This document shows positions 1 to 16,697 of a DNA stretch of 19,651 nucleotides, in pieces. Location of the stretch: IMG/VR virus record IMGVR_UViG_2648501186_000006; one strand, written 5' to 3'. The DNA comes from a virus (taxonomy: Duplodnaviria; Heunggongvirae; Uroviricota; Caudoviricetes). Below the pieces are notes generated by a model. The model was not told where the DNA came from. It ran no database searches and saw nothing but the letters and a program-made list of their open reading frames with translations. Every line of letters begins with the position of its first letter. Position 1 is the stretch's first letter. A program made the translations under genes and the position numbers.

Positions 1-306
1 GATGAACAATACCGTCATGCTTTTGAACTTGCCGATCAGCTTGGTTTAAAACATCCAGATTGTATCGAGCATGTATTTCCAACTTATGCTGATGAGCAAT
101 GTAATCAAGTGCTTATTGAAGAGGATTTTTTCAGCACTGAAGAACGAGAAAGCGTTGATCGCTGCATTGGTGTGATTTGTTCTTCGGTAAGTGATGATTT
201 ATTCCCTAATGTGCCGGAAGGTGGTGGTGTTGGATACCAATTCCTGTATGAAGGCGATGAGCTTAAATGTTATGAACATGGTCTTCTCATCGAAAGCGTA
301 GAATAA
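1..306 (+). CDS. 3' end of a gene that starts upstream of the window (hypothetical protein, partial)
   Basis: Frame 1 is open from base 1 to the TAA at 304-306; the listed 65-aa ORF (109..306) is only its tail. Product not recognised. Confidence 0.5.
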   Translation, partial: DEQYRHAFELADQLGLKHPDCIEHVFPTYADEQCNQVLIEEDFFSTEERESVDRCIGVICSSVSDDLFPNVPEGGGVGYQFLYEGDELKCYEHGLLIESVE

Positions 307-320
307 TACGGTTTCCTTCC

Positions 321-346
321 AACCGGCTTTGTTGGCCGGTTTATTC
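321..346 (+). terminator. Putative intrinsic terminator after the upstream gene
   Basis: Hairpin AACCGGC-tttgttg-GCCGGTT (321-341) followed by a T-rich tail (TTATT). Confidence 0.4.
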
Positions 347-349
347 AAC

Positions 350-358
350 TTATCCACA
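350..358 (+). promoter_or_regulatory. DnaA box (TTATCCACA) at the plasmid origin
   Basis: Exact match to the 9-mer DnaA box consensus TTATNCACA, placed just upstream of the GATC cluster and iterons as in P1 oriR-type origins. Confidence 0.5.
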
Positions 359-363
359 GCATA

Positions 364-420
364 GATCCAATAAACAGATCCCAAAGAGAACCTAGGAAGA
401 TCCAAAGAAGATCCCGGATC
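364..420. promoter_or_regulatory. Cluster of five GATC (Dam methylation) sites in AGATCC-type heptamer repeats, origin-like
   Basis: GATC at 364, 377, 399, 410 and 417 within 57 bp, mostly as AGATCCA/AGATCCC; a sixth at 454. P1 oriR has a comparable 5x GATC heptamer block (established knowledge). Confidence 0.55.
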
Positions 421-462
421 GCTGTAAGCCGCGCCGTTCATGGCCTAAAACGGGATCAACAT

Positions 463-561
463 TGACTATACGCGATTTTATGTTGACTGTGTGCGATTTT
501 ATGTTGACTGCACGCGATTTATTGTTGACTATACGCGACAGAAACATTGACTGTACGCGAT
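463..561 (+). repeat. Five direct origin iterons (incC-like), core TTGACT-RYRYGCGA(T)
   Basis: Copies start at 463, 483, 504, 524 and 547 (TTGACTATACGCGAT, TTGACTGTGTGCGAT, TTGACTGCACGCGAT, TTGACTATACGCGAC, TTGACTGTACGCGAT), spaced 20-23 bp, all in one orientation, immediately upstream of repA. Confidence 0.8.
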
Positions 562-640
562 TTTAGAGCCTGACTATTCACAGTTGTTGATAACTGCAAT
601 CCAGATGACGCCAGGCCGCGCCACATATGGAGAAATCACG

Positions 641-1525
641 ATGCCGGAAGAAAATAAAGGCTTCCTTAGCGTTGAAGAAGTTGCAGGAAATACAGGAGAA
701 ATCCACAGCCTGAAACCCAATAACAATAGCACTATACAACCCATCGCTTTGTTGCGCTTAGGTGTGTTTGTGCCAACCTTAAAATCTACCAATGTGGCAC
801 TACGTCGCGGATCGTCAGTTACTACAAACACAACGAACGCAACCGAAGAACTATCAAGCCTCAAAATTGTTGAGCAGGAAGGCTATGAGGGAATTGAAAT
901 TCATGGTCCACGCCTGGATATGGATACTGATTTTAAGGTGTGGGTGGGCATAACCTCCGCGTTGTTTGACTACGCACCTGATGATGACGGCATAATCACC
1001 CTGCCATTCTCCGAGTTTGCCGATCGATGCGGCTATCCACGTAAGCGCCTTTCAAAGGCGTTCCGTAAAAGTATTGATGACTCTCTGACACGCATTCAGC
1101 AGACAGTTGTCAAATTCCGCTTCCCGGCGGCAAAAGGTCATCTCAATAACATTAACGTCAACTTGTTGGCATATAGCAGCCTGAATACCGAGCTTGATGT
1201 TATCGAGATCCAGCCGCAGAAACAGCTATCTGAACTTTACTATGTTGACTATAAGCGAATCCTGAAGCTGAAGATGCTGGATAAGCTCGGGCGCAAAGAG
1301 ACAGCCAAGGTACTGTATACATTCTTTGAGGCTCTACCCGCCAACCCGGCACCTGTCAGCATTGAGCGCCTTAGAGCAAGGCTTAATCTCAAATCATCCG
1401 TTAGCGTGCAAAATAGCGTTATCAGAAAAGCCATGAAAGATTTGGAAGCTATTGAATATCTTAAATTTTCAGAGATAAAAAACGGCAGGAAAATCGGCTT
1501 CCAGATCCATAAGCGCAATCCATAA
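641..1525 (+). CDS. repA: Iteron-binding plasmid replication initiator RepA (P1 / RepFIB-like)
   Basis: ORF flanked by iteron arrays. Start chosen at ATG 641 with SD GGAG at 629-632; the track start at 584 lies inside the iteron/promoter region with no SD. Protein shows the family's LRLGVFVP and GPRLDMDTDFK motifs as I recall them. Confidence 0.85.
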   Translation: MPEENKGFLSVEEVAGNTGEIHSLKPNNNSTIQPIALLRLGVFVPTLKSTNVALRRGSSVTTNTTNATEELSSLKIVEQEGYEGIEIHGPRLDMDTDFKVWVGITSALFDYAPDDDGIITLPFSEFADRCGYPRKRLSKAFRKSIDDSLTRIQQTVVKFRFPAAKGHLNNINVNLLAYSSLNTELDVIEIQPQKQLSELYYVDYKRILKLKMLDKLGRKETAKVLYTFFEALPANPAPVSIERLRARLNLKSSVSVQNSVIRKAMKDLEAIEYLKFSEIKNGRKIGFQIHKRNP

Positions 1526-1527
1526 TA

Positions 1528-1782
1528 TTGACTATATGCGATAGCGAGAAGTTGACTATAGGCGACATTCGTTGACGCTGGTGGATTTTTGCTGGCGTCA
1601 ATATTCTGCAAGTCGCTATTGAGATGGCTTTTAGGGTCATTTCATCGCGTATAGTCAACGTTTCTCCCGACAATATCTTACATAGTCGATCTTTGGTGGA
1701 GTTAAATCGACTACAGTCAACTTTTGACTGTAGTCACATCGCGCATAGTCAACTATTCACATTAACCTTCGCGCATAGTCAA
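1528..1782. repeat. Control iteron array downstream of repA (incA-like), about 8 copies in both orientations
   Basis: Same core as the origin iterons: + copies at 1528 and 1552 (degenerate 1572) and 1724; - copies at 1644-1658, 1706-1720, 1738-1752 and 1768-1782. Mixed orientation and position after rep match the P1 incA copy-control locus. Confidence 0.75.
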
Positions 1783-1817
1783 CATTTGCGCGGTTCTCAT
1801 CAAGCAGTGGTATTGAT

Positions 1818-2627
1818 ATGCAAGAAGAGAAACAACACTACCTCTACGTTCTGGTGCCAGAGAACGGAGATACTTTTAAAATCGGCATTTCATGTGGTCC
1901 ATTGGCACGGTTTAAAGGGCTACAAGTGAATCCCGATTTTGCGCTTTCACGGGTCTATCGTGGTACGCGTTTGGCAATGGTTAATCTTGAGCGGGCTTTA
2001 CACGCAACCTTTTTCCCCTGGAATGCGCCGTGGGAGAAAAGCGCCGGTGGCGGGCATACTGAATGGTTTACACGAGAGTGTCTTGATAAGGTTTTGGCTC
2101 ATATCGAATATCTAAATGATATGTGGGGAGTGATTCTCGAGCGCATTAAGTCGAATGATTTACTTCAGCGTCCAGTAGATGCTGCTCGCTCTTTCGAAAA
2201 AGAGCTGGATGTTACTTCTATCGTGACTTTCAAAGATGACGCAGGAATGAGGGACGTGGCTTATGTCTCCATATCTGGCTATGAACTGGACGCGATCCGC
2301 GCTCAATGTGAATTGCTGAAAGCAATGTTTATGCTTCGGGCTAAATATCCCTGGGAGACAAGGCGGGTGTGCTTCCCTATGGAAGAGTTAACCGGCACCA
2401 TTGATTCCCAGCTTTACCACGATAATCCAGAGAAGTTTTTTAGCCTTTTAGCCGGTAATGGGCTTAACTGTGTGTCCGGGCTGGGGCGAAGTAGAATCCA
2501 ACATGCCTCGCTCTTCGGTCCCTTCTTTTACGATCGACACGGGTACTTTGAGACTGAACTTCCGGCGCTTACGCGTGCTATAGATACTATCGATTTCGAA
2601 CGATTATTCGCTGCTCTTAGCAAATAA
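1818..2627 (+). CDS. GIY-YIG-like (T5orf172-type) domain protein with an unrecognised C-terminal half
   Basis: N-terminus YLYVLVPENGDTFKIGIS...LARFKGLQ...LERALHATF...GGHTEWF fits the Y-x-Y-hh...KIG-x-S/T...R...L...E..LH..F...EWF pattern of the T5orf172 / GIY-YIG-like family. Weak SD. Sits between the control iterons and the parA operator. Confidence 0.55.
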   Translation: MQEEKQHYLYVLVPENGDTFKIGISCGPLARFKGLQVNPDFALSRVYRGTRLAMVNLERALHATFFPWNAPWEKSAGGGHTEWFTRECLDKVLAHIEYLNDMWGVILERIKSNDLLQRPVDAARSFEKELDVTSIVTFKDDAGMRDVAYVSISGYELDAIRAQCELLKAMFMLRAKYPWETRRVCFPMEELTGTIDSQLYHDNPEKFFSLLAGNGLNCVSGLGRSRIQHASLFGPFFYDRHGYFETELPALTRAIDTIDFERLFAALSK

Positions 2628-2634
2628 CACTGAT

Positions 2635-2656
2635 GCCCCTGAACGGGGCTTTTTTG
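2635..2656 (+). terminator. Rho-independent terminator
   Basis: GCCCC-tgaac-GGGGC stem-loop followed by TTTTTT, 8 bp after the stop of the 1818..2627 gene. Confidence 0.6.
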
Positions 2657-2744
2657 TGTCCTCCTTGTAACTCTCAATCGTGCAAAATGAACCAAACATG
2701 CAGAGAATGCTATGTACAAGCATCTGTGCATACATTATTATTTT

Positions 2745-2780
2745 ATGCAGCATTTTTAATTAAATTCAAAAATACAGCAT
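2745..2780 (+). promoter_or_regulatory. Imperfect inverted repeat upstream of parA, candidate par operator/promoter
   Basis: ATGCAGCATTTTTAATT / AAATTCAAAAATACAGCAT arms match at 13 of 17 positions, centred near 2762, in an AT-rich region directly upstream of parA. P1 ParA autoregulates through a large imperfect palindrome (established knowledge). Confidence 0.35.
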
Positions 2781-2795
2781 AAAGGATGACTTTCG

Positions 2796-3992
2796 ATGAG
2801 TGATTCCAGCCAGCTTCACAAGGTTGCTCAAAGAGCAAACAGAATGCTCAATGTTCTGACTGAACAAGTACAGTTGCAAAAGGATGAGCTACACGCGAAC
2901 GAGTTTTACCAGGTCTATGCGAAAGCGGCACTGGCAAAATTGCCTCTACTGACTCGAGCGAACGTTGACTATGCCGTAAGTGAAATGGAAGAAAAGGGTT
3001 ATGTTTTCGATAAACGCCCTGCTGGCTCTTCAATGAAATATGCGATGTCAATTCAGAACATCATTGACATATATGAACATCGCGGAGTGCCAAAATACCG
3101 GGATCGCTACAGCGAAGCGTATGTGATTTTCATCTCCAATCTTAAAGGCGGTGTGTCAAAAACTGTATCGACGGTTTCTCTGGCGCATGCAATGCGTGCC
3201 CACCCTCATCTTCTGATGGAAGATTTAAGGATTCTGGTTATTGACCTTGATCCGCAATCTTCAGCAACGATGTTTTTAAGCCATAAACACTCTATTGGTA
3301 TCGTAAACGCAACATCTGCACAGGCTATGTTGCAGAATGTAAGCCGTGAAGAGCTGTTAGAGGAGTTTATTGTTCCTTCTGTTGTACCTGGGGTTGACGT
3401 TATGCCTGCGTCGATTGACGATGCCTTTATTGCATCCGATTGGAGAGAGCTGTGCAATGAGCATCTACCGGGTCAGAACATCCATGCTGTCCTGAAAGAG
3501 AATGTGATTGATAAGCTGAAGAGCGATTATGACTTTATCCTCGTTGATAGTGGTCCTCACCTTGACGCCTTCCTGAAAAATGCTTTGGCCTCGGCCAATA
3601 TACTGTTTACACCTCTGCCGCCAGCAACTGTCGATTTCCACTCATCGCTTAAATACGTTGCCCGCCTTCCTGAGTTGGTGAAACTCATTTCGGATGAAGG
3701 CTGCGAGTGCCAGCTTGCGACTAACATTGGTTTTATGTCCAAGTTGAGTAACAAGGCAGATCATAAGTATTGCCATAGCCTGGCTAAAGAAGTGTTCGGT
3801 GGGGATATGCTCGATGTCGTCCTCCCTCGCCTTGACGGTTTTGAACGTTGCGGCGAGTCTTTTGACACTGTTATTTCAGCTAACCCGGCAACGTATGTTG
3901 GTAGTGCTGATGCATTGAAGAACGCGCGAATTGCCGCGGAAGATTTTGCTAAAGCAGTGTTTGACCGTATTGAATTTATCAGATCTAACTGA
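2796..3992 (+). CDS. parA: Type Ia partition ATPase ParA (P1-type, 398 aa with N-terminal DNA-binding extension)
   Basis: Deviant Walker A KGGVSKT at about residue 117 after a roughly 100-aa N-terminal extension, typical of large ParA. SD AAGGATGA. Followed within 16 bp by parB, then a P1-type parS. Confidence 0.93.
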   Translation: MSDSSQLHKVAQRANRMLNVLTEQVQLQKDELHANEFYQVYAKAALAKLPLLTRANVDYAVSEMEEKGYVFDKRPAGSSMKYAMSIQNIIDIYEHRGVPKYRDRYSEAYVIFISNLKGGVSKTVSTVSLAHAMRAHPHLLMEDLRILVIDLDPQSSATMFLSHKHSIGIVNATSAQAMLQNVSREELLEEFIVPSVVPGVDVMPASIDDAFIASDWRELCNEHLPGQNIHAVLKENVIDKLKSDYDFILVDSGPHLDAFLKNALASANILFTPLPPATVDFHSSLKYVARLPELVKLISDEGCECQLATNIGFMSKLSNKADHKYCHSLAKEVFGGDMLDVVLPRLDGFERCGESFDTVISANPATYVGSADALKNARIAAEDFAKAVFDRIEFIRSN

Positions 3993-4008
3993 GGAGTAAG
4001 AAACCCCC

Positions 4009-5010
4009 ATGTCAAAGAAAAACAGACCAACAATTGGGCGAACCCTTAATCCTTCAATATTAAGCGGATTTGATAGTTCTTCAGCCTCTGGCGATCGAGT
4101 CGAGCAGGTATTCAAGTTATCAACTGGTCGCCAGGCCACATTTATCGAGGAGGTAATTCCTCCGAACCAGGTAGAAAGCGATACCTTTGTTGATCAGCAT
4201 AACAACGGGCGTGACCAGGCATCTCTTACGCCAAAATCATTAAAAAGTATCCGAAGCACTATTAAGCATCAGCAATTTTACCCTGCAATAGGTGTTAGAC
4301 GGGCTACAGGGAAAATTGAAATTTTGGATGGTTCCCGGCGTCGAGCTTCTGCCATCTTAGAGAACGTAGGGTTGCGGGTTTTAGTCACGGACCAGGAGAT
4401 CAGCGTTCAGGAAGCGCAAAATTTAGCGAAAGACGTTCAGACAGCATTGCAGCACAGCATTCGAGAAATAGGTCTGCGTTTGATGCGAATGAAAAATGAT
4501 GGGATGAGTCAGAAGGATATTGCAGCCAAAGAAGGGCTATCTCAGGCGAAGGTCACGCGTGCTCTCCAGGCAGCGAGTGCTCCGGAAGAATTAGTCGCCC
4601 TTTTCCCTGTGCAGTCGGAATTAACCTTTTCGGACTACAAAACGCTTTGTGCTGTTGGCGACGAAATGGGGAACAAGAATTTAGAGTTTGATCAGCTTAT
4701 TCAAAATATATCCCCGGAAATAAACGACATCTTATCCATTGAAGAAATGGCCGAAGATGAAGTTAAAAATAAAATCCTGCGCTTGATAACAAAGGAAGCC
4801 TCACTACTCACGGATAAAGGTTCTAAAGATAAGTCCGTAGTTACTGAATTATGGAAATTTGAGGACAAGGATCGCTTTGCAAGGAAGCGCGTGAAAGGCC
4901 GTGCATTTTCTTATGAGTTTAATCGACTCTCAAAAGAGTTACAGGAAGAACTCGACAGGATGATTGGGCATATCCTTAGAAAGAGCCTCGATAAAAAGCC
5001 GAAGCCTTAA
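4009..5010 (+). CDS. parB: Partition centromere-binding protein ParB (P1-type, 333 aa)
   Basis: SD GAGGAG at 3991-3996, ATG at 4009. Immediately downstream of parA and upstream of the parS boxes, with a central HTH-like segment (MSQKDIAAKEGLSQAKVTRAL). Confidence 0.93.
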   Translation: MSKKNRPTIGRTLNPSILSGFDSSSASGDRVEQVFKLSTGRQATFIEEVIPPNQVESDTFVDQHNNGRDQASLTPKSLKSIRSTIKHQQFYPAIGVRRATGKIEILDGSRRRASAILENVGLRVLVTDQEISVQEAQNLAKDVQTALQHSIREIGLRLMRMKNDGMSQKDIAAKEGLSQAKVTRALQAASAPEELVALFPVQSELTFSDYKTLCAVGDEMGNKNLEFDQLIQNISPEINDILSIEEMAEDEVKNKILRLITKEASLLTDKGSKDKSVVTELWKFEDKDRFARKRVKGRAFSYEFNRLSKELQEELDRMIGHILRKSLDKKPKP

Positions 5011-5014
5011 ACTT

Positions 5015-5097
5015 TCGCCATTCAAATTTCACCATTAAATTACTGTTTTTAAAGTAAATCCTTCTAAAATTTCAAGGTGAAATCGCCACGATTTCAC
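5015..5097 (+). other. parS: Partition site parS (centromere): boxA heptamers and boxB hexamers around an AT-rich IHF-type bend
   Basis: BoxB TCGCCA at 5015-5020 and 5083-5088; boxA ATTTCAC at 5026-5032 and 5091-5097, ATTTCAA at 5069-5075, inverted GTGAAAT at 5077-5083; AT-rich spacer between the arms. Matches the published P1 parS architecture. Confidence 0.85.
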
Positions 5098-5147
5098 CTT
5101 GGATTTTACCTTTCTCCCCTCCTCCCGAAAAAAATTTCTTGTCACGA

Positions 5148-5168
5148 GAAAGTCAACAAGTGACTTTC
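5148..5168 (+). promoter_or_regulatory. Perfect 8-bp inverted repeat GAAAGTCA-acaag-TGACTTTC, candidate operator/promoter element for the capsid gene
   Basis: Seen directly, about 60 bp upstream of the capsid gene start and followed by an A/T-rich -10-like stretch (TTCAATAAAAT). Confidence 0.3.
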
Positions 5169-5227
5169 AATAAAATCTCTTCCGAAAAGGGATTCACACA
5201 AGTGCCTTGTGTTTAAGGAAGAGTAAA

Positions 5228-6934
5228 TTGAGTAACTTACGCGAATACCAGAATCGTATTGCAGATATCGCAAAACGCTCTAAAGCCGTTCTTGGCTGGG
5301 CAAGTACAGCACAGTTCGGTACTGATAACCAATTCATTAAAGATGATGCCGCGCGTGCCGCATCTATCCTTGAAGCTGCACGTAAAGACCCAATTTTTGC
5401 GGGTATCTCTGATAATGCCACCGCTCAAATTGCTACCGCGTGGGCAAGTGCACTGGCTGACTACGCCGCAGCACATAAATCTATGCCGCGTCCGGAAATT
5501 CTGGCCTCCTGCCATCAGACGCTGGAAAACTGCCTGATTGAGTCCACCCGCAATAGCATGGATGCCACTAATAAAGCGATGCTGGAATCCGTCGCAGCAG
5601 AGATGATGAGCGTTTCTGACGGTGTTATGCGTCTGCCTTTATTCCTCGCGATGATCCTGCCTGTTCAGTTGGGGGCAGCTACCGCTGATGCGTGTACCTT
5701 CATTCCGGTTACGCGTGACCAGTCCGACATCTATGAAGTCTTTAACGTGGCAGGTTCCTCTTTTGGTTCTTATGCTGCTGGTGATGTTCTGGACATGCAA
5801 TCCGTCGGTGTGTACAGCCAGTTACGCCGCCGCTATGTGCTGGTGGCAAGCTCCGATGGCACTAGCAAAACCGCAACCTTCAAGATGGAAGACTTCGAAG
5901 GCCAGAATGTACCAATCCGAAAAGGTCGCACTAACATCTACGTTAACCGTATTAAGTCTGTTGTTGATAACGGTTCCGGCAGCCTACTTCACTCGTTTAC
6001 TAATGCTGCTGGTGAGCAAATCACTGTTACCTGCTCTCTGAACTACAACATTGGTCAGATTGCCCTGTCGTTCTCCAAAGCGCCGGATAAAGGCACTGAG
6101 ATCGCAATTGAGACGGAAATCAATATTGAAGCCGCTCCTGAGCTGATCCCGCTGATCAACCACGAAATGAAGAAATACACCCTGTTCCCAAGCCAGTTCG
6201 TTATCGCGGCTGAGCACACGGTACAGGCGGCGTATGAAGCACAGCGTGAATTTGGTCTGGACCTGGGTTCCCTACAGTTCCGCACCCTGAAGGAATACCT
6301 GTCTCATGAACAGGATATGCTGCGTCTTCGCATCATGATCTGGCGTACTCTTGCGACCGACACCTTTGACATCGCTCTGCCGGTTAACCAGTCCTTTGAT
6401 GTATGGGCAACCATCATTCGTGGCAAATTCCAGACTGTATATCGCGACATTATTGAGCGCGTTAAATCTTCTGGTGCGATGGGGATGTTTGCTGGTGCTG
6501 ATGCAGCATCTTTCTTCAAACAGTTGCCGAAGGATTTCTTCCAGCCAGCCGAAGACTATATCCAGACTCCGTATGTTCACTACATCGGTACCCTGTTCGG
6601 TAACGTGAAAGTGTACGAAGTACCTGCTGGTATTTGTAAGAACTTAACGACAGAGAACATTCAGTTCAGCTCGATGGATGTGCTGTGCTACGTCCGTGAT
6701 GAAAATCCGGGTAAAGCAGGCTTCGTGACTGGTGATGCTGTCCCGGCCATCCCGTTCCAGCATCCAACCACTCCGGCGCTGGTCAACCGTACCACGCTGT
6801 GGGGTTCGGCTATCAACGATATGCACCCACGCAACGGCGCTGATTACTTCACTCGTGTAACGCTGACAATGGCCAAAAAAGGCGGGCTTAACTTCATAAG
6901 CGGCGACACGATTGATGCCGGTGACTCTGAGTAA
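5228..6934 (+). CDS. Putative major head (capsid) protein precursor with an N-terminal helical delta-like region
   Basis: 568-aa ORF directly after parS, in the position of P1 gene 23. No in-frame ATG for about 90 codons, so start assigned to TTG 5228 with SD AAGGAAGAG at 5215-5223 (track start is TTG 5207). Ala-rich helical N-terminus consistent with a processed capsid precursor. Confidence 0.5.
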   Translation: MSNLREYQNRIADIAKRSKAVLGWASTAQFGTDNQFIKDDAARAASILEAARKDPIFAGISDNATAQIATAWASALADYAAAHKSMPRPEILASCHQTLENCLIESTRNSMDATNKAMLESVAAEMMSVSDGVMRLPLFLAMILPVQLGAATADACTFIPVTRDQSDIYEVFNVAGSSFGSYAAGDVLDMQSVGVYSQLRRRYVLVASSDGTSKTATFKMEDFEGQNVPIRKGRTNIYVNRIKSVVDNGSGSLLHSFTNAAGEQITVTCSLNYNIGQIALSFSKAPDKGTEIAIETEINIEAAPELIPLINHEMKKYTLFPSQFVIAAEHTVQAAYEAQREFGLDLGSLQFRTLKEYLSHEQDMLRLRIMIWRTLATDTFDIALPVNQSFDVWATIIRGKFQTVYRDIIERVKSSGAMGMFAGADAASFFKQLPKDFFQPAEDYIQTPYVHYIGTLFGNVKVYEVPAGICKNLTTENIQFSSMDVLCYVRDENPGKAGFVTGDAVPAIPFQHPTTPALVNRTTLWGSAINDMHPRNGADYFTRVTLTMAKKGGLNFISGDTIDAGDSE

Positions 6935-6960
6935 TCAGGGGAAGTTCTCCGTTTAACATA

Positions 6961-6979
6961 GCGCCCCCGTGCGGGGCGC
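6961..6979 (+). promoter_or_regulatory. GC-rich stem-loop between capsid and sheath genes (no U-tract)
   Basis: GCGCCCC-cgtgc-GGGGCGC, 7-bp all-GC stem; followed by ATAACAGGG rather than a T-run, so more likely a processing or stability element than a terminator. Confidence 0.3.
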
Positions 6980-6994
6980 ATAACAGGGAAAGTT

Positions 6995-8584
6995 ATGTCT
7001 CAATATTCAATTCAACAGTCATTAGGTAATGCATCCGGCGTCGCGGTTAGCCCGATCAATGCCGATGCGACGTTATCTACCGGTGTTGCATTAAATAGCA
7101 GCTTGTGGGCTGGTATTGGCGTATTTGCGCGTGGCAAGCCGTTTACTGTTCTGGCGGTTACTGAGTCCAATTACGAAGATGTTCTCGGCGAACCGCTGAA
7201 GCCGTCTTCCGGCTCACAGTTCGAACCAATTCGTCATGTGTACGAAGCTATTCAGCAAACGTCTGGTTATGTTGTTCGTGCTGTTCCGGATGATGCGAAG
7301 TTCCCGATTATTATGTTCGATGAATCAGGCGAACCGGCTTACAGTGCGTTGCCATACGGTTCTGAAATTGAACTTGATAGCGGCGAAGCCTTTGCTATCT
7401 ACGTTGATGATGGTGATCCGTGTATTTCACCTACCCGTGAGTTAACCATCGAAACGGCAACAGCGGACAGCGCAGGTAATGAACGCTTCCTCTTAAAACT
7501 GACCCAGACGACTTCGCTCGGTGTGGTAACGACCCTGGAGACACACACTGTGTCTTTGGCGGAAGAAGCGAAAGATGACATGGGCCGCTTGTGTTATCTG
7601 CCTACGGCTCTGGAAGCCCGTTCTAAATATCTGCGCGCGGTTGTTAATGAAGAGCTGATTTCGACGGCGAAAGTAACAAATAAAAAATCGCTGGCGTTCA
7701 CTGGTGGTACCAACGGTGATCAGTCGAAAATCTCAACCGCTGCGTACCTGCGTGCGGTGAAAGTGCTGAACAATGCGCCGTACATGTACACCGCTGTTCT
7801 TGGCCTGGGTTGCTATGACAATGCGGCGATCACTGCGTTAGGTAATATCTGTTCTGATCGCTTGATTGATGGCTTCTTTGATGTCAAACCGACATTGACG
7901 TACACGGAAGCGATCTCTGCTGTTGAAGATACCGGTTTACTTGGTACCGATTATGTAAGCTGTGCTGTCTATCATTTCCCGTTCTCCTGCAAAGACAAAT
8001 GGACCCAATCCCGCGTGGTCTTCGGTCTGTCTGGCGCGGCGTATGCGGCGAAAGCTCGTGGCGTCAAGAAAAACTCCGATGTCGGCGGTTGGCATTACTC
8101 ACCGGCTGGTGAAGAACGTGCCGTCATTGCTCGTGCATCACTTCAACCGCTGTATCCGGAAGACACCCCGGACGAAGAAGCTATGGTCAAGGGCCGACTC
8201 AATAAAGTATCTGTAGGTACTTCGGGCCAGATGATCATCGATGATGCTTTAACTTGCTGCACGCAGGACAACTATCTGCATTTCCAGCACGTCCCATCCC
8301 TGATGAACGCAATCAGCCGTTTCTTTGTCCAGTTAGCCCGACAGATGAAGCATAACCCGGACGGCATTACTGAGTCTGGCCTGACTAAAGGGATGACCAA
8401 ACTTTTGGATCGCTTTGTCGCCTCCGGCGCTCTGGTGGCTCCTCGTGATCCTGATGCTGACGGTACAGAACCGTATGTGCTGAAAGTTACGCAGGCGGAA
8501 TTCGATAAATGGGAAGTAGTCTGGGCCTGCTGCCCGACTGGCGTAGCCCGTCGTATCCAGGGCGTGCCGCTGCTTATTAAGTAA
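6995..8584 (+). CDS. Putative contractile-tail sheath protein
   Basis: 529-aa ORF with SD GGGAAAG, in the position of P1 gene 22; size and position fit a myovirus sheath. Assigned by context, not by motif. Confidence 0.45.
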   Translation: MSQYSIQQSLGNASGVAVSPINADATLSTGVALNSSLWAGIGVFARGKPFTVLAVTESNYEDVLGEPLKPSSGSQFEPIRHVYEAIQQTSGYVVRAVPDDAKFPIIMFDESGEPAYSALPYGSEIELDSGEAFAIYVDDGDPCISPTRELTIETATADSAGNERFLLKLTQTTSLGVVTTLETHTVSLAEEAKDDMGRLCYLPTALEARSKYLRAVVNEELISTAKVTNKKSLAFTGGTNGDQSKISTAAYLRAVKVLNNAPYMYTAVLGLGCYDNAAITALGNICSDRLIDGFFDVKPTLTYTEAISAVEDTGLLGTDYVSCAVYHFPFSCKDKWTQSRVVFGLSGAAYAAKARGVKKNSDVGGWHYSPAGEERAVIARASLQPLYPEDTPDEEAMVKGRLNKVSVGTSGQMIIDDALTCCTQDNYLHFQHVPSLMNAISRFFVQLARQMKHNPDGITESGLTKGMTKLLDRFVASGALVAPRDPDADGTEPYVLKVTQAEFDKWEVVWACCPTGVARRIQGVPLLIK

Positions 8585-8593
8585 GGGAATACA

Positions 8594-9409
8594 ATGAGCA
8601 AAAACTTTTTTCAATCCGGGGCATTTTTGGGGAATGGACTGTCCCGTTTCGCTTTGAACTCTGATCCTGTGCAGCTGATGGAGTCTGCCCGAGCAAGCGC
8701 CGAACCGCCAACAGATCCGGTTATTAATAATAATCCGGAACCGGCGGCACAGACTAACGATAACGTTCCATCTGATCCGGCTCCTGAGCAAATCCTGGAA
8801 GGGAAAGACGGTAAAGAATGGACCGTCGAACAGGCGCACCAGATGATTCTGGAAGCTGCAAATCGAAGTGCTATGCAGAATGCGTTGAGTGATGCGGCCG
8901 ACGCCGTTTTCGCCTGGGCTGATAGCGGTGATCTGACTTTCGACTCCCTTGATGGTTTCGTTCAGGCTATCGCTGGTATCTCTGATGACGACGACTCCGA
9001 AGTTACAGAAGAACAGGACGATGCCTATAACGAAGCATGGGCAAATGTTGCTGACTTCCTCGCAGCATGCGGTGTAGATGATGACCTGATCGAAGCACTG
9101 GCTGACGATGAAGACGACGACGCAGCTGCTGATGTTGGTGCCTCTATCGCTGGTTTAGATAGCGACGACCGCGACGAACTGGAAGCGGCGTTTGTTGTTG
9201 CTGGCACTTCTGATGAAATGCTGACTGAAGCATTTAAGAAGGTTGTTCGTAACGGTGAGATCAAACTCATCCGTAAACGCCTGCGTAAAAAACGTCTGAC
9301 TGCGGCTCAAAAATCGGCGCTGAAAAAAGCGCGTCGAAAAGCCCAGACCGGCGCGGCAAAACTTGCCCGCAAAAAGTCAATGAAACTGCGCCGTAAGCGC
9401 CTTGGCTAA
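8594..9409 (+). CDS. Acidic protein with a strongly basic C-terminal tail (function unknown, virion-associated by context)
   Basis: 271 aa; D/E-rich centre (DDDDSEVTEEQDD..., ADDEDDDAAAD...) and a last roughly 50 aa dominated by K/R (KLIRKRLRKKRLTAAQKSALKKARRKAQ...KSMKLRRKRLG). SD AGGGAA 6 nt before ATG. Confidence 0.6.
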   Translation: MSKNFFQSGAFLGNGLSRFALNSDPVQLMESARASAEPPTDPVINNNPEPAAQTNDNVPSDPAPEQILEGKDGKEWTVEQAHQMILEAANRSAMQNALSDAADAVFAWADSGDLTFDSLDGFVQAIAGISDDDDSEVTEEQDDAYNEAWANVADFLAACGVDDDLIEALADDEDDDAAADVGASIAGLDSDDRDELEAAFVVAGTSDEMLTEAFKKVVRNGEIKLIRKRLRKKRLTAAQKSALKKARRKAQTGAAKLARKKSMKLRRKRLG

Positions 9410-9416
9410 AGGAGGA

Positions 9417-9434
9417 GGCCGGAGAACTCCGGCC
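9417..9434 (+). promoter_or_regulatory. Hairpin between a strong SD (AGGAGG, 9410-9415) and the ATG at 9445 (possible split RBS)
   Basis: GGCCGGAG-aa-CTCCGGCC; the only good SD for the 9445 gene is about 30 nt upstream in linear sequence and about 11 nt if the hairpin forms. Confidence 0.3.
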
Positions 9435-9444
9435 TTTAACTTGA

Positions 9445-10026
9445 ATGGCACCTATACCTTATGGGGTTTACAGCCAGGCTGACGGTGTATCACCATTTCT
9501 GAAAGTTACTTTAACGAACTCTCAGTACCAGGTTACCGGATATATCAGCCAGGGGGCGGCAATGAACATGGCCCAGAATTGGGAAGCGCCGTTTACCGGT
9601 ATGTCCATGGGATCTGTTTCTGGTGCTCTGGGTGGTTTTGTGCAAGTAGGTACTGAAACAACGTCGGTTGCCCGTTGGAATAGCTTAATGGTTTGGGAAG
9701 GGGGGGCTCCGCCGACGTTCACGCTGCCTGTAACTTTCATTGCTTTGAACAATCCATTCATTGAAGTTTCAGGCGCTATCGCCGCGTTGACAGCCATGAT
9801 TAGCCCGGAACTAAAAGCGGCCAATGTTGGTGGTCGAATCCCGGAGCGCGTGACGCTAAACATTGGTCGCCGGATCAACATCACCGATGTCGCCATCCAG
9901 GACTTAAGTTTTGATCTCGATGCGCCAAGGGACAGTAATGGATATTTCCTGAAAAACACCGTCAACCTCCAGTTGACCGGTTCTTCGATATATAACAGCT
10001 CCGATATTGTTCGGGCGTTCCAGTAA
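9445..10026 (+). CDS. Phage tail or baseplate-associated structural protein (hypothetical)
   Basis: 193-aa ORF in the late gene block, Gly/Ser/Thr-rich with beta-type composition; no specific motif recognised. Confidence 0.55.
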   Translation: MAPIPYGVYSQADGVSPFLKVTLTNSQYQVTGYISQGAAMNMAQNWEAPFTGMSMGSVSGALGGFVQVGTETTSVARWNSLMVWEGGAPPTFTLPVTFIALNNPFIEVSGAIAALTAMISPELKAANVGGRIPERVTLNIGRRINITDVAIQDLSFDLDAPRDSNGYFLKNTVNLQLTGSSIYNSSDIVRAFQ

Positions 10027-10037
10027 AAGGATTTTAT

Positions 10038-10547
10038 ATGGGGCACAATAACACTAAGGGAAACCGTAAATTTATTAAGGGCCGCTATACTGCCAACGCG
10101 GCCAAAGGCGAACGACTGGTATCTTCTGAATTCCAGCTCACTTTTGCAGGCCATGAAGATATCAGCGTACTGGTTCGCACGTCGCAAATCCCTGAAATGA
10201 CCCGCGAGGATGTGGAGGACTATGGTCCGAATGGTGTGAAGTTCAACCAGCACGGTCCAATTCGAAACTCTGGGGAAATCCAGGTCCAGTGCGTGGAGAC
10301 TATCGAAGGCGATATTCTTCAGTTCATTAAAGATCGCATTGCGGCGAAGGACTATGTTGATATCACGATGGCTGCTACCCCTGAATCCAAATCTTCCGGG
10401 GTTAACGCTGTGACAAAAGCTGCTACAACAATTGAAATGTTGGACTGCAAAATCTACAGTGATGCAATCGACTTTAGTACCGAAGATGTGACTGCTGCTG
10501 TGCGTCCGTCACTTCGTATTGTCTACAACTGGATTGAGTGGGATTAA
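10038..10547 (+). CDS. Putative tail tube protein (T4 gp19-like size and C-terminus)
   Basis: 169 aa, SD AAAGGA; C-terminal ...LRIVYNWIEWD resembles the aromatic C-terminus of contractile-tail tube proteins. Follows the sheath-like gene. Confidence 0.4.
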   Translation: MGHNNTKGNRKFIKGRYTANAAKGERLVSSEFQLTFAGHEDISVLVRTSQIPEMTREDVEDYGPNGVKFNQHGPIRNSGEIQVQCVETIEGDILQFIKDRIAAKDYVDITMAATPESKSSGVNAVTKAATTIEMLDCKIYSDAIDFSTEDVTAAVRPSLRIVYNWIEWD

Positions 10548-10567
10548 GAGTCATCACTTGTATTTTA

Positions 10568-10591
10568 AAGCTCCTACGGGAGCTTTTTTTT
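10568..10591 (+). terminator. Rho-independent terminator ending the structural gene block
   Basis: AGCTCC-tacg-GGAGCT stem-loop followed by 8 T. Confidence 0.7.
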
Positions 10592-10719
10592 ATAACTATT
10601 TTATATAAAAATGCATTGATAACATTGTCTGGAGTTTTATGTTAGATTATTAATGTTCTAATAAACTACAATTATTGAGGTAGAGGTTTGTGCCTGTACT
10701 GTTAAAGGGGGACTCTAAA

Positions 10720-11316
10720 ATGGCTGTGATTCCAATGTCGTACTCCCCGGGTACTGTCGCTCGTCGATTTTCGATCCTGGACGGAGTTACCATCCAGGGT
10801 GTGCTTTACCAGGTTATATGGGATTCCAAAACCCCATTTGCAGCTGTAATAGAGGCTGCGCCTTCTGTTATCGATGGTGATATGCGGCATAAGGTTGTCG
10901 CTACTCTTGAACTTCAACGTCGCCCGCAGCTTGAAGGTGTACTGGTAAGGAGGTTCTGGGAGGATAGTGATGTTGCCCAAATTGAAGGTATCGTGGTTGA
11001 TGGAACCGTCCGTGATGTCGGTTTAGCTACTTTTGTTTACGAAACCGTAGCCTCAAAAGCTGGTGTTGTTTTGCTTAGTGATAATGAGCAATACGAAGGT
11101 GGAAAAGCTCTTTGGCAACACATCGCCCGTCGCTCTTCCGAGCTAAAAGTGTTTATCCTCGACACCGATGCCGCTCAGTATTACCCGTTTGACGGCGAAC
11201 GTGTTTGCTATGACGGGGTAAGTATTCCTGAATCTGAGATATGGAGTGAACACCCAGATCGAAGTAAGCATGGGGTTGTTCTTGTCGCTGAATCCATAAC
11301 TGGAAAGGCGGCATAG
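10720..11316 (+). CDS. Hypothetical protein (199 aa) with its own promoter; weak GNAT-like motif
   Basis: Start ATG 10720 with SD AAGGGGG (track start is GTG 10690). Preceded by a terminator and a promoter-like TTGATA...TAGATT region. Segment RDVGLATFVYETVASKAGVVLLSDNEQYEGGKALW loosely resembles GNAT motif A. Confidence 0.55.
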   Translation: MAVIPMSYSPGTVARRFSILDGVTIQGVLYQVIWDSKTPFAAVIEAAPSVIDGDMRHKVVATLELQRRPQLEGVLVRRFWEDSDVAQIEGIVVDGTVRDVGLATFVYETVASKAGVVLLSDNEQYEGGKALWQHIARRSSELKVFILDTDAAQYYPFDGERVCYDGVSIPESEIWSEHPDRSKHGVVLVAESITGKAA

Positions 11317-11559
11317 CAGTAAAATTCCTTGCTCCTTAAAAGGGGAGAGGGTTAATCTAGATATGCTAAGCATGGATATGGCCTCAGATTAATGTTAAGC
11401 GTCTTGCAGGACGCGTAATGTTATCTGGGGCTTTCTTCTGTTATTTGTTTGAGTGCTAGGTAGCAAAGAGAGCTAGCATTCATCAGGCAAATCTATCAAT
11501 AAATAGCGTTAGTTTTTGTTGTGTGTATGTTTCTTTATTGTTATTGTGTTGTTTGTTTT

Positions 11560-11582
11560 TTGGACAACGCAATTCCTATAAT
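11560..11582 (+). promoter_or_regulatory. Candidate promoter for the DUF3892-like gene (perfect -10 TATAAT)
   Basis: TATAAT at 11577-11582, 22 nt upstream of the SD; the upstream TTGGAC spacing is suboptimal, so the -35 assignment is uncertain. Confidence 0.3.
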
Positions 11583-11604
11583 CTATAGAATAAAGGAAGT
11601 ATAT

Positions 11605-11892
11605 ATGGCTGATGTACGCATTACTTGCATTACCCTCTCCGGCTCGCAATCAATCCATGAGCATATTACTCATGTGGGAAGTCCTCAATTTAATACTAGC
11701 AATGGGAAATGGACTGTTGAGCAGGTAATTAATGCTATTGATAATAATCTCCATACATTCTATGTAACAGATAATGCAGGTAATCGTGTAGAAGTTGGGG
11801 TTGTTAATCCTGGTAATGGTGGAAGGCAGTTTATTAGAACGTATGCAGACAATCGATGGAATAATAATTTACTATCGCTACCAGTCTGTTAA
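11605..11892 (+). CDS. Small DUF3892-like protein (95 aa)
   Basis: ATG 11605 with SD AAGGAAG at 11593-11599. Motifs MADVRITCI...SGS..HEHITHVG...GKWTVEQVINAI...NLHTFYV.D..GNRVEVGVV...RTYADNRWNNNLLSLP.C match a small conserved family I recall as DUF3892. About 36% GC, well below the backbone. Confidence 0.6.
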   Translation: MADVRITCITLSGSQSIHEHITHVGSPQFNTSNGKWTVEQVINAIDNNLHTFYVTDNAGNRVEVGVVNPGNGGRQFIRTYADNRWNNNLLSLPVC

Positions 11893-11903
11893 TGTAATTT
11901 TAT

Positions 11904-11938
11904 AAAAAAGGCTGCAACCTCTGTTGCAGCCTTTTTTT
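11904..11938. terminator. Bidirectional intrinsic terminator between convergent genes
   Basis: A-run, GGCTGCAAC-ctct-GTTGCAGCC, T-run (7 T); can terminate both the + DUF3892-like gene and the - ATPase gene. Confidence 0.7.
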
Positions 11939-11962
11939 AGCCATTATGACTGAGATAAGCCA

Positions 11963-13018
11963 CTATAAACTCTGAACAAGACGTTCGATTGCTGCACCAT
12001 ATCTTTCTAATGGTTCATTATTGATTTGTGGCTCAGTGTCATGGATCTGATATCTGCCTGGTTTTATATCAAATAGAGGTCTTCCTAGATGGGAAGATAC
12101 TATAGCTACGGAATGGTTATCTGGCACAGTAAACGTTTTTAAATTTCCGCCTTGGAACGCTGTTGGTTTATTCGTCCGCAGATTTTCAGCTCTATCCCTG
12201 ATTTCGTCGAACATTGCCGAAAACGCTTTACTTGCTCGTTTGTCATACTCTGTCGAACGATTAAAAACTAGAGAATGAATGACAGGAACCGCTAGACCAA
12301 ACTGTTGACACCGATCGTAAAAGTTAACAGAACGATAATCGTTTTGTACTCCAACGCCATAAACCAACTGGCTTAGGTTATCCACTGCTCGAGCCGAAGA
12401 ACCATCACTTGAGCAAGGTATTATAATTGCATTTGCTGCTATCAGTGATAGTTCGGTATAGGCAGAGAAACTGGGGTTGCAATCAATAAAGCAAATGGTT
12501 TCTTCGATACCTTGTTGTTGTGCGCATGCAACAAGCAAATCTCGTAGCCACAGGTGGATGCTTTTCCATGAGTCAACTGGTAAGTTTACGCTGCTTAACT
12601 GATTGATTACTTGCGCCTGAACTTCCAGGCTTGGGTCGCCTGCAATCAAAAATACATTGTCAGGGACATGCTCGTTAATTTCAGAGACATGAATTAAGAA
12701 ACTTGTTTCTGAACCAGTAAGCATGTGGGGGCTACGGGTTCTTCTGTCAAAGTACCCACCGACAGTTTTTCGTTGTTGAATTAAGCTCGCGAGGTTAGCA
12801 GCACCAGTACCGTTACCGCCGAGCAATATTTCAGATAAGTTAGCCTGTGGACACATATCTGCAAAAATAATACGCTTTTCTGGATTTTGCCTTGCGTATT
12901 CACAGGCCATAGCGAAAGATAAGTAGGTCTTTCCTACGCCACCTTTATTATTCCAAATAGCATATGATTTCATGGTATCCCCGGCGTTATCTGCTGTTTG
13001 TGTGCCAGCATAAGTCAT
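11963..13018 (-). CDS. ParA/MinD-family P-loop ATPase (deviant Walker A), orphan with no adjacent ParB
   Basis: NNKGGVGKT Walker A and hydrophobic-D Walker B (ICFIDCNPS). 351 aa from ATG 13018, or 336 aa from ATG 12973 which puts Walker A at residues 9-16; both have a plausible SD. Co-directional with and just downstream of repL; about 41% GC. Confidence 0.7.
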   Translation of the reverse strand: MTYAGTQTADNAGDTMKSYAIWNNKGGVGKTYLSFAMACEYARQNPEKRIIFADMCPQANLSEILLGGNGTGAANLASLIQQRKTVGGYFDRRTRSPHMLTGSETSFLIHVSEINEHVPDNVFLIAGDPSLEVQAQVINQLSSVNLPVDSWKSIHLWLRDLLVACAQQQGIEETICFIDCNPSFSAYTELSLIAANAIIIPCSSDGSSARAVDNLSQLVYGVGVQNDYRSVNFYDRCQQFGLAVPVIHSLVFNRSTEYDKRASKAFSAMFDEIRDRAENLRTNKPTAFQGGNLKTFTVPDNHSVAIVSSHLGRPLFDIKPGRYQIHDTEPQINNEPLERYGAAIERLVQSL

Positions 13019-13282
13019 TATGCATCTCCATTACTATCCATGAATTAAGTCAAAAAATATGTAAAAGTAGCAATTTATCACTCTTTTACTCATTATAAAC
13101 GTTACAGGTTGTGATGGTTAGCTGTGTTTTTATCAGTACAAGTTTTGATCTGGCTTTGGGGGGTTATATATGGATATGTCTCAAAGATGCCCTGCAAAAA
13201 GCGATCGCTAACTGTAAAAAATCAGATTGCATCTTCGACCTCAAACTGAAAACGCCAGGTGACTCCAGATTAGAGCAATCTA

Positions 13283-14128
13283 TCACCCTCTGAATCCTGC
13301 CGGTATACCCCATTGTTCGTTATCTTTATTTTTGGCTAAAACCGCATTAAGAGCTTCGTTTACCGTCATGCAATGCGGCAGATTATCGAAGTTTGATACC
13401 CCGCCAATATCAGGAGAACGCTTGTTCTTCAGGTAAGCATATTTCCGCGCTGCCGCCTCTACTTTCTGCTTGAACTCATGTTTTTGAGCGCGTTTTTTGG
13501 ATAAACGCAGATTGTCGGCCTTTGCTTTTGCCCCAGCGATCCATGAAGTCAATTTTTTGAGTTTGGTCGTTCCGGCAGCGCCGGAAACTGATCTTTTTGT
13601 TTTTTTAAATTGTGACTTCTTATTCTTTATTGCCACGTCATCCTGACAGGGGGAGGGGGTATCATTTTGACATGGGGGTGTGGATAAAAAATCAAATAAA
13701 GCCAATGTCTTAGCGAGAACAGCTTTAACCTTGGTTGCGGCTGAAGAGATCTTTAATTTGCTTTCAATTAGCGCATTTTTGGCTTGTTGAGCAAAGGCTA
13801 AAAAGGATGGTGTAAACCGGTACAGGTTAGCGCGGCGTTCACGGTGATCGCCGATAACAATCTCTACCGACAGGATTCCTTTGTTTACAGCTTCACGGAA
13901 TGCGCGAACGACGGTTGATTGGCTATAACCAGTTTCTGCCGCGATCATGCGGTGAGGCTTGTGAATGAAGTATTCACTGGTTGTTGCCGCGAGATTTGCA
14001 CATTGCGACAGGATATGCCCGGCGCTACGGGATAGACCGGAGTGTGTTACAAAGCAGGCCAATTCATAGCCAGAAAAAGTAAAATCGCTCATCGTTATAC
14101 AGCTCAGGAAAGTGACTTTAGCCAGCAT
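13283..14128 (-). CDS. repL: Lytic replication protein RepL (P1-type)
   Basis: Immediately downstream of kilA on the same strand under a C1-operator promoter, the P1 kilA-repL arrangement; sequence matches my recollection of RepL. True start may be the internal ATG at 14092 (MSDFTF...). Confidence 0.75.
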   Translation of the reverse strand: MLAKVTFLSCITMSDFTFSGYELACFVTHSGLSRSAGHILSQCANLAATTSEYFIHKPHRMIAAETGYSQSTVVRAFREAVNKGILSVEIVIGDHRERRANLYRFTPSFLAFAQQAKNALIESKLKISSAATKVKAVLAKTLALFDFLSTPPCQNDTPSPCQDDVAIKNKKSQFKKTKRSVSGAAGTTKLKKLTSWIAGAKAKADNLRLSKKRAQKHEFKQKVEAAARKYAYLKNKRSPDIGGVSNFDNLPHCMTVNEALNAVLAKNKDNEQWGIPAGFRG

Positions 14129-14157
14129 TACAATGCTGGTGGTTCTTACTACGTCTG

Positions 14158-14958: not shown

Positions 14959-15027
14959 TTTTTCTCCAAATTTGCATCAACCTTCAATCACCAGCTCGAA
15001 ATGGTGATTCTTTGCACTTAGAAAACG

Positions 15028-15044: not shown

Positions 15045-15086
15045 TTTTTCTGACTCGATCCAGATCGGGTTGGTCGATCTGCTCAG

Positions 15087-15120: not shown

Positions 15121-15121
15121 G

Positions 15122-16659: not shown

Positions 16660-16697
16660 TATGATGCGAAAAGATAGCATTCGTGACTTAAAAATAC

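Follow-up and report, generated by a model that had tools for sequence, protein, structure and literature searches.

A p0111-type replicon at the oriR-repA-incA position of a P1-like phage-plasmid

The stretch of DNA analysed here (the window, 19,651 nucleotides of IMG/VR record IMGVR_UViG_2648501186_000006) very probably carries the replicon by which a P1-like phage-plasmid is maintained in its plasmid-prophage state, and this replicon is of the p0111 type, not IncY, as the result of a cassette exchange within the P1-like family. The exchanged block, of approximately 2.3 kb (~346–2693), stands in for oriR-repA-incA of P1 (Table 1). A first-pass annotation of the sequence had proposed that the replicon of a P1 backbone had been swapped, and the comparison bears this out, given that the initiator (RepA') and RepA of P1/P7 share, over the full length, 41% of residues by BLASTP (E = 2e-71) and 43% in a global alignment, that positions 436–2693 have no detectable nucleotide similarity to P1, and that both flanks are P1-like.

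Replicon typing, which had been recommended as a check, gives p0111 and not IncY. Over 5,321 aligned bases (5.3 kb), nucleotide identity is 98.2% with pO111_2 of E. coli O111:H- 11128 (NC_013370, which is AP010962 in RefSeq), and AP010962.1 is the p0111 reference (PMC11165635). With the stop codon counted, 294 of the 295 aligned positions agree between RepA' and the RepA of pO111_2, which leaves one differing residue, and the placement of the replicon between upfA and parA is that of the p0111 backbone. Neither of the sequence features that define IncY was found, that is, a near-identical P1 RepA (there is no nucleotide match) and the 19-bp iteron GATGTGTGCTGGAGGGAAA in both arrays; near-identity to P1 in iterons and RepA was the very result that had been named as contradicting a swap.

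The exchange of p0111 for IncY on a P1 backbone is already in the literature, and the finding is correct but ordinary. In 2021, Pfeifer et al. described IncY and p0111 as alternative replicase families that occupy this position in P1-like phage-plasmids (PMC7969092), and the two types are also described elsewhere (PMC9603915; PMC5241659). As a discovery the present case has little weight, two P1-like replicon types being known already; in practice it is useful to know that the correct replicon type of the window is p0111. Plasmid typing tools carry both types.

Table 1. Features of the replicon and its immediate flanks, in window coordinates
Feature	Position	Strand	Details
upfA 3' end, P1-like backbone left of the replicon	1..306	+	89–94% identical to P1 upfA (100-bp bins)
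DnaA box TTATCCACA	350–358	+	Perfect consensus match; left end of origin
Five GATC (Dam) sites, AGATCCM-type heptamers	364..420		GATC at 364, 377, 399, 410, 417
G+C-rich spacer	426..457		59% GC; between heptamers and first iteron; sixth GATC at 454–457
Five direct origin iterons (incC equivalent)	458..564	+	22-nt register AAYRTTGACTRYRYGCGATTTT; 458–479, 479–500, 500–521, 521–542, 543–564
Two DnaA-box-like sites	574–582; 585–593	+; -	One mismatch each; between iterons and repA'; origin right end
repA', p0111-type initiator, putative iteron binder	641..1525	+	294 aa; GGAG Shine-Dalgarno at 629–632, 8 nt upstream
Iteron-like site within repA' coding sequence	1241..1262	+	TTGACTATAAGCGA; one mismatch to core
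Forward control iterons (incA equivalent)	1524–1545; 1548–1569	+	Strong; 26.6 and 26.2 bits
Degenerate third forward control iteron	1568–1589	+	TTGACGCTGGTGGAT; 7.0 bits; expected phasing
Reverse control iterons (incA equivalent)	1641–1662; 1703–1724; 1735–1756; 1765–1786	-	Strong; array values as listed 29.9, 26.9, 27.2 and 28.1 bits
Degenerate reverse control iteron	1672–1693	-	7.4 bits; expected phasing
T5orf172/GIY-YIG-family gene	1818..2627	+	269 aa; inside swapped block; Pfam T5orf172 27 bits
Terminator-like hairpin and T-run	2635..2658	+	Ends swapped block
P1-type partition module	2694..5097	+	par promoter/operator; parA 2796–3992; parB 4009–5010; parS 5015–5097

The exchanged block and its P1-like flanks

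The right junction of the block is abrupt, since at 2693/2694 the sequence passes from no similarity to 98.3% identity with P1. The P1-like stretches 2694–10589 (98.3% identical) and 13269–18893 (96.2%) hold parA, parB, parS, genes 23/22/21, repL, kilA, ant, icd, c4 and sim, in agreement with the first-pass annotation, which had called the parS boxes, c4, kilA and repL P1-type. In the partition module, ParA is 99.7% and ParB 100% identical to the P1 proteins (ParA is just 57.8% identical to that of P7), 77 of the 83 bases of parS match P1, and the A and B boxes, TCGCCA and ATTTCAC, are identical; by all of these features the module is of the P1 type. This element retains the P1-identical ParB, the P1-type parS boxes and the P1 immunity regions. 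It also has a deletion junction at about 18893, found in only two plasmids.

On the left, identity to P1 is 96–100% further upstream of the upfA end, as read in the 100%-identical plasmid pLR-21-1_3; the decrease from 97–100% further left to the values of the upfA end in Table 1 means that the left junction is not sharp and that the exact left end of the block is uncertain. The segment from the DnaA box to the iterons is 86% identical to a non-P1 locus (L007/L012, e.g. NZ_CP085065.1, hereafter L007, in a phage-plasmid of about 94 kb that carries ParM and has a RepA 85% identical to RepA') and only 70% identical to P1, and therefore belongs to the imported module. A non-P1 block between P1-like flanks supports the swap, and the exact filling of the oriR-repA-incA position, with upfA on one side and P1-type parA-parB-parS unchanged on the other, points to a cassette exchange. 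The same upfA/parA arrangement is found around the replicon in SJ46 and pLR-21-1_3. The block also includes the T5orf172 gene; annotations in relatives place its product in the GIY-YIG nuclease family, and neither P1 nor P7 has a counterpart.

Origin, initiator and iterons

The elements that had been listed for this replicon (a DnaA box, five GATC heptamers, five direct iterons and repA) were all found where they had been placed. The DnaA box pairs, in the alignment, with the second of the two tandem boxes of P1 and P7, and it is kept in L007 despite the unrelated upstream flank of that locus. The heptamers form the densest GATC cluster of the window and the sole 60-bp stretch with five GATC sites, their AGATCCM style is common to this replicon and P1, and they are presumed to be the region of unwinding and methylation control. 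The spacer that follows aligns with that of P1/P7, GCCGCGCC. The two DnaA-box-like sites that close the origin on the right are, each taken alone, at the level of chance; their position agrees with the P1 plan, which has TATCCACA there.

The iteron of this replicon is AAYRTTGACTRYRYGCGAT, a sequence unrelated to the P1/P7 19-mer, and the presumed p0111-type recognition sequence is TTGACTRYRYGCGAT. All five origin iterons (462–560) match TTGACTRYRYGCGA with 0 mismatches, their start-to-start spacing is 21/21/21/22 bp, and they score 27.7–31.6 bits with a weight matrix, against a shuffle maximum of 17.2. When the window was searched with the iteron pattern at up to two mismatches, 13 matches were found where 1.6 were expected, a number reached by 0 of 200 shuffles, and 12 of the 13 fall within 462–1782; in the weight-matrix scan, 11 iterons score 26–32 bits and the best of 50 shuffles 17.2. 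In contrast, the 16-nt P1/P7 iteron core ATGTGTGCTGGAGGGA has 0 matches at up to three mismatches in the whole window, and the first-pass annotation was right in setting the iteron apart from the P1 repeat. No paper in the searchable literature contains both “p0111” and “iterons”, and none contains the iteron string; the iteron consensus and array layout set out here are of practical use.

Downstream of the initiator gene lies the second iteron array that this class of architecture demands, here as presence in the sequence (1524–1786). The estimate of about eight control iterons in mixed orientation was a fair one, as there are six strong and two degenerate copies, forward and then reverse. 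The reverse copies are spaced by approximately 31 bp, like those of P1 incA, and the degenerate forward copy is kept in L007 as TTGACGCTGGCGGAT. The site within the coding sequence of repA' scores 17.3 bits when it is held out of the matrix, a value on a par with the best of 50 shuffles, and occurs at the equal position in L007. Its perfect conservation over 14 nt between 77%-identical genes is not significant alone, because many such runs are expected; it could be an extra binding or regulatory site for RepA' that is absent from P1.

RepA' has a Pfam Rep3_C domain (27.3 bits, cut-off 21.1) and a Rep3_N domain marginally under its cut-off (22.0 bits, cut-off 22.4). The AF2 model is of moderate confidence (pLDDT 69.7), and a fold search with it matches RctB domains 2–3, RepE, pi, pPS10 RepA and TrfA at a probability of 1.0, with TM-scores of only 0.3–0.45 to the solved initiators. 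The WH1 and WH2 of an initiator of the Rep_3, P1-RepFIB-like class are thus present, with Rep3_N marginal, and the origin is that of the Rep_3 class in its phased direct iterons, DnaA box and adjacent GATC-rich region. A sequence search of RepA' against solved structures returned noise only, an NCBIfam search returned no family, and tblastn against phage records returned no homologue in D6, a candidate source that was therefore rejected. With regard to transcription, a scan for consensus sigma-70 promoters found none on the + strand of 458–640, that is, in the origin iterons and their vicinity; each iteron contains TTGACT, a 5/6 match to the -35 hexamer, and at 16–18 bp from it nothing convincing as a -10 was seen by eye, only weak candidates.

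Provenance, working and incompatibility of the module

The module is widespread: it is 97–100% identical to that of SJ46, RCS47, JL22 and more than 400 plasmids, is carried by 484 plasmids of PLSDB and occurs in 415 of 5,426 complete E. coli genomes (about 8%), and RepA' is 100% identical to the RepA of SJ46 and JL22. With regard to its source, the first-pass annotation had suggested a comparison with RepFIB replicons. It is very improbable that a conjugative plasmid of the F or IncFIB(K) type was the source of a captured RepFIB (IncFIB) replicon, which should then be IncFIB in both typing and behaviour. Several database records do name RepA' “RepFIB replication protein A”, and the protein is slightly closer to RepA of the IncFIB and SSU5 types (44–49%) than to that of P1. 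However, every IncFIB-type RepA falls below 50% identity, for which reason membership of RepFIB was rejected at the typing level, and the relative at 49% carries a different iteron, ATCTACTGTATGCTAC. Above 50% there are only the p0111 cluster (at least 99%), the 85% variant on another phage-plasmid and then proteins of Proteus/Providencia at 53%, and on its left side the origin has a heptamer design like that of P1.

It is likewise highly unlikely that there was no exchange and that the P1 replicon diverged vertically, and fast, as diversifying selection favoured a new incompatibility specificity. Element by element, the architecture matches that of P1, the part with the DnaA box and GATC sites is about 70% identical to P1, and the identity of upfA falls gradually towards the replicon, all of which would suit such a divergence. 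Against it stand the abrupt right junction, the T5orf172 gene that P1 does not have, and the closely related module that L007 carries in an unrelated genomic context; the modularity of the replicon is, at the level of sequence, shown by that module. Moreover, no intermediates with 43–99% RepA identity were found within P1-like elements (in PLSDB, 394 records are at 99% or more, 4 at 80–99% and the rest below 60%), and on the backbone phylogeny of Salmonella phage-plasmids IncY and p0111 types are intermingled, with 17 inferred changes of replication type (PMC11165635).

It is scarcely credible that another replicon keeps the element and that the module is only a relic, decayed or redundant. 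The element does look like a deletion derivative, with a size of about 66–68 kb, and some carriers are cointegrates, because 13 are typed as conjugative and 103 as mobilizable. However, the repA' reading frame is intact, the high-scoring iteron arrays are complete, RepA is at least 99% identical across about 400 plasmids, the carriers are for the most part non-mobilizable plasmids of about 90–100 kb, and SJ46 and JL22, once introduced by transformation or lysogenisation, are kept as plasmids (PMC5241659; PMC9603915).

The module is homologous in design to oriR-repA-incA of P1, with an initiator and iterons that presumably co-diverged to TTGACTRYRYGCGAT. By analogy with P1, RepA' monomers would bind the five origin iterons and would open the origin in concert with DnaA and with the heptamer region in its methylated state; judging by position and by the P1 case, binding of RepA' to these iterons probably also keeps repA' repressed. 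The iterons downstream, again as in P1, may cap the copy number through titration of RepA' and through “handcuffing”, in which the array pairs with the origin. The module was very probably exchanged by recombination among P1-like elements; the specificity of replication control would thereby change, and that of partition stays.

This bears on incompatibility, for which the first-pass annotation had predicted a different specificity. The prediction fails for partition, where ParA, ParB and the parS boxes are P1-type and incB therefore stays P1-type, and it can hold only for the replication determinants; from the sequence, the change should be confined to the equivalents of incA and incC. Pfeifer et al. 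draw the same inference of compatibility from the replicon type (PMC7969092). In the 5,426 complete E. coli genomes, IncY and p0111 occur together in the same genome in 2 cases, where about 28 are expected under independence. We tentatively suggest, against the compatibility inference of the literature, that replicon exchange alone may be too little for IncY- and p0111-type elements to coexist. In practice, replicon typing alone is insufficient to foretell whether the two types will coexist, because the partition and immunity modules stay P1-type and natural co-residence is rare.

Comparison with known replicons

With P1 and P7 (IncY), whose RepA proteins are 100% identical to each other, the replicon has in common a DnaA box, five GATC heptamers, a G+C-rich spacer, five origin iterons at 21-bp phasing and a Rep_3-type RepA of about 290 aa, followed by forward and then reverse iterons near parAB-parS. 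It differs in having one DnaA box at the left of the origin, whereas P1 and P7 have two in tandem, and in its control array, which in P1/P7 consists of nine iterons. It also differs in the T5orf172 gene before par and in the iteron itself, TTGACTRYRYGCGAT as opposed to the annotated GATGTGTGCTGGAGGGAAA.

RepFIB-type replicons (IncFIB plasmids and SSU5-like phage-plasmids) share the initiator family and the layout of a repA flanked by iterons; in the one relative examined, at 49%, the iteron has its own sequence and the same 21-bp phasing. The replicon of L007 is nearer, as it shares the iteron core, the layout of DnaA box, GATC sites and spacer, the 21/21/21/22 spacing, the iteron-like site within the gene and the degenerate copy that forms the third forward control iteron. 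It lies, however, among tail genes, with flanks unrelated to upfA and par of P1, no adjoining parAB and no T5orf172 gene. The p0111 members pO111_2, SJ46, RCS47, JL22 and phi456 show no substantial difference from the replicon described here; the T5orf172 gene is shared with these relatives and is split into two CDS in pO111_2.

Anatomy of the replicon

The first-pass annotation placed a DnaA box, GATC heptamers, iterons, repA and control iterons at 345-1790, and all of these elements are found there (see table). The five GATC sites form the densest GATC cluster anywhere in the window and lie within heptamers that differ little from the P1 ones, while the origin iterons are spaced 21, 21, 21 and 22 bp from start to start. 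The iteron repeats are far above chance: the pattern has 13 matches at two or fewer mismatches (1.6 expected), a number reached in 0 of 200 shuffles, and the weight-matrix scores of 26-32 bits exceed the maximum of 17.2 obtained with 50 shuffles. An iteron-like site, TTGACTATAAGCGA, is located inside the repA' coding sequence (1241-1262, +). It has one mismatch and reaches 17.3 bits in a matrix built without it; it could serve RepA' as an additional binding site or be no more than a codon-constrained coincidence. No such site exists in P1 repA, and none was listed by the repeat search within repA of locus L009, whose initiator is a 49% relative.

Features of the window and its identity to P1 (NC_005856)
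Feature	Position	Strand	Remarks
upfA 3' end, left part of origin	3-435		87% to P1
DnaA box	350-358		TTATCCACA, perfect match
Five GATC sites	364, 377, 399, 410, 417		within AGATCCM-type heptamers
GC-rich spacer	between GATC heptamers and first iteron		59% GC
Iterons, repA', control iterons, T5orf172 gene	436-2693		no detectable P1 match
Five direct origin iterons	458-564		each fits TTGACTRYRYGCGA, 0 mismatches
repA'	641-1525	+	294 aa; GGAG 8 bases upstream
Strong downstream iterons (2)	1524-1545, 1548-1569	+	
Degenerate downstream iterons	1568-1589, 1672-1693		fill out ~31-bp phasing
Strong downstream iterons (4)	1641-1662, 1703-1724, 1735-1756, 1765-1786	-	
T5orf172/GIY-YIG-family gene	1818-2627	+	between control iterons and par promoter
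par promoter, parA, parB, parS, genes 23, 22, 21, pmgG, bplB	2694-10589		98.3% to P1
Second variable region	10590-13268		no P1 match
hok/mok-like segment	11346-11434		
DUF3892 protein	11521-11892		
ParA-like AAA_31 ATPase	11963-13018	-	
repL, kilA, ant1/2, icd, c4, sim, pmgC	13269-18893		96.2% to P1

The exchanged block and its surroundings

In the annotated P1 and P7 records the iteron is GATGTGTGCTGGAGGGAAA, with five copies at the origin and nine in incA. The first-pass annotation was right that the P1 repeat differs from that of the window, where the P1/P7 motif has 0 matches at three or fewer mismatches. Over its full length RepA' shares 41% identity by BLASTP and 43% by global alignment with the RepA of P1 and P7, so that high identity to P1, the result that would speak against a different replicon, is seen neither in the iterons nor in the initiator. 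The proposed swap of the replicon on a P1 backbone is likewise supported by the profile of P1 identity along the window, in which the segment without a detectable match (436-2693) directly adjoins one that is 98.3% identical.

The exchanged block spans about 346-2693. On the right it ends abruptly at 2693/2694, just before the P1 par promoter. On the left the transition is gradual: P1 identity is 73% across the DnaA-box/GATC segment, 89-94% in upfA and, farther upstream, as seen in the 100% identical plasmid pLR-21-1_3 (NZ_AP027490.1), 96-100%. The segment from the DnaA box to the iterons is 86% identical to the replicon of L007, a locus of non-P1 context, and only 70% identical to P1; it is therefore part of the imported module, and its likeness to P1 reflects the old common ancestry of both replicon families. 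The block also contains a terminator-like hairpin that P1 lacks, and the T5orf172 gene, which is missing from P1 and P7, split into two CDS in pO111_2 and absent beside the p0111-like replicon of L007 and L012. This nuclease-like gene at the edge of the module could contribute to the exchange of cassettes.

Elsewhere, the region 10590-13268 takes the place of P1 pmgF-rlfB-rlfA, a site at which like substitutions have been described (Venturini et al., 2019; PMC6906374). At ~18893 (18890-19651) pmgC is fused straight to P1 darA operon sequence (AJ000741 ORFVI/VII, 99%), omitting the tail-tube, baseplate and tail-fibre block. This junction occurs in two PLSDB plasmids only, both from pig-faeces E. 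coli (CP122667.1, 66.1 kb; NZ_CP122664.1, 68.0 kb), and most relatives measure 90-100 kb. Deletion has probably left the element defective and maintained solely as a plasmid.

Predicted initiator function and incompatibility

RepA' matches Rep3_C above the Pfam cut-off and Rep3_N slightly below it. Its AF2 model is moderately confident (pLDDT 69.7) and in predicted fold most resembles RctB domains 2-3, RepE, pi, pPS10 RepA WH1 and TrfA. By analogy with the well-studied P1 replicon, and in keeping with the P1 annotation notes, RepA' monomers on the five origin iterons would act with DnaA to open the neighbouring region; this step probably depends on Dam methylation of the heptamers, which probably also links initiation to sequestration. 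Origin-bound RepA' probably represses its own promoter; a scan for consensus promoters found none on the + strand of 458-640. The downstream iteron array would hold copy number down both by titrating RepA' and through pairing with the origin.

The incompatibility determinants of P1 are of two kinds, replication (incA/incC) and partition (incB = parS). ParA and ParB are 99.7% and 100% identical to those of P1 (ParA only 57.8% to that of P7), and parS matches P1 at 77 of 83 bases, with all A and B boxes identical. The partition module (2796-5097) thus remains P1-type, so that the different incompatibility specificity proposed earlier should hold only for its replication-based part. The ParA of phage SJ46 (L003 5302-6498) gives the same figures, 99.7% to P1 and 57.8% to P7, and the published statement on this P1/P7 par point appears to be reversed for SJ46 and this element.

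Natural coexistence was estimated by inclusion-exclusion. Among 5,426 complete E. coli genomes, the module is present in 415 and the classical P1 replicon in 361, and a query joining both matched 774; p0111 and IncY therefore share 2 genomes (415 + 361 - 774), against ~27.6 expected if independent, a crude comparison since genomes are not independent samples and the count carries no correction for population structure. The two types are never on one record. Host range, partition incompatibility or immunity in common may equally lie behind this deficit. What it does show is that having different replicon types has not made co-residence frequent.

The p0111 family and known exchanges

The replication module belongs to the 'p0111' replicon type. 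It matches pO111_2 of E. coli O111:H- 11128 (NC_013370 = AP010962) at 98.2% over 5.3 kb, with RepA differing at one residue; AP010962 is cited as the p0111 reference (PMC11165635). Phages SJ46, RCS47, JL22, phi456 and others are 97-100% identical to the module, and 484 PLSDB plasmids carry it. The label 'IncHI1B' given to pLR-21-1_3 by PLSDB MOB-suite typing is not meaningful for its P1-like p0111 replicon.

The RepA' cluster is tight (at least 99% identity in 394 plasmid records); below it come an 85% variant, a 53% Proteus/Providencia relative and then IncFIB-type/SSU5-type proteins at 44-49%. The 85% variant (L007 3700-5130; L012, NZ_CP085065.1 61722-94191) has the same iteron core and origin layout as the window, and its replicon is inserted among tail genes in a ~94-kb phage-plasmid from E. 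coli / E. marmotae that bears ParM and lies outside P1 subgroup 1, a setting that points to one cassette family travelling between phage-plasmid backbones. In the 49% relative, five copies of a distinct iteron, ATCTACTGTATGCTAC, follow the 21-bp phasing of the window. The module is therefore a mobile cassette in the large P1/RepFIB-like iteron replicon family, whose members each pair an initiator with an iteron of their own.

Taken together, the observation is confirmed and the swap is supported, with the caveat on partition. No account of the p0111 iterons was found in the searchable literature; setting them out here adds descriptive detail rather than a discovery. Replicon exchange on a P1-like backbone is already known, ordinary and explained: JL22 carries repA' (p0111) and an unknown gene where repA (IncY) would be (PMC9603915), SJ46 RepA is 42% identical to that of P1 (PMC5241659), and 17 changes of replication type have been inferred on a phage-plasmid tree (PMC11165635). 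In P1 subgroup 1, two replicase families, typed IncY and p0111, occupy the same position and have been suggested to be replication-compatible (Pfeifer et al., 2021; PMC7969092).
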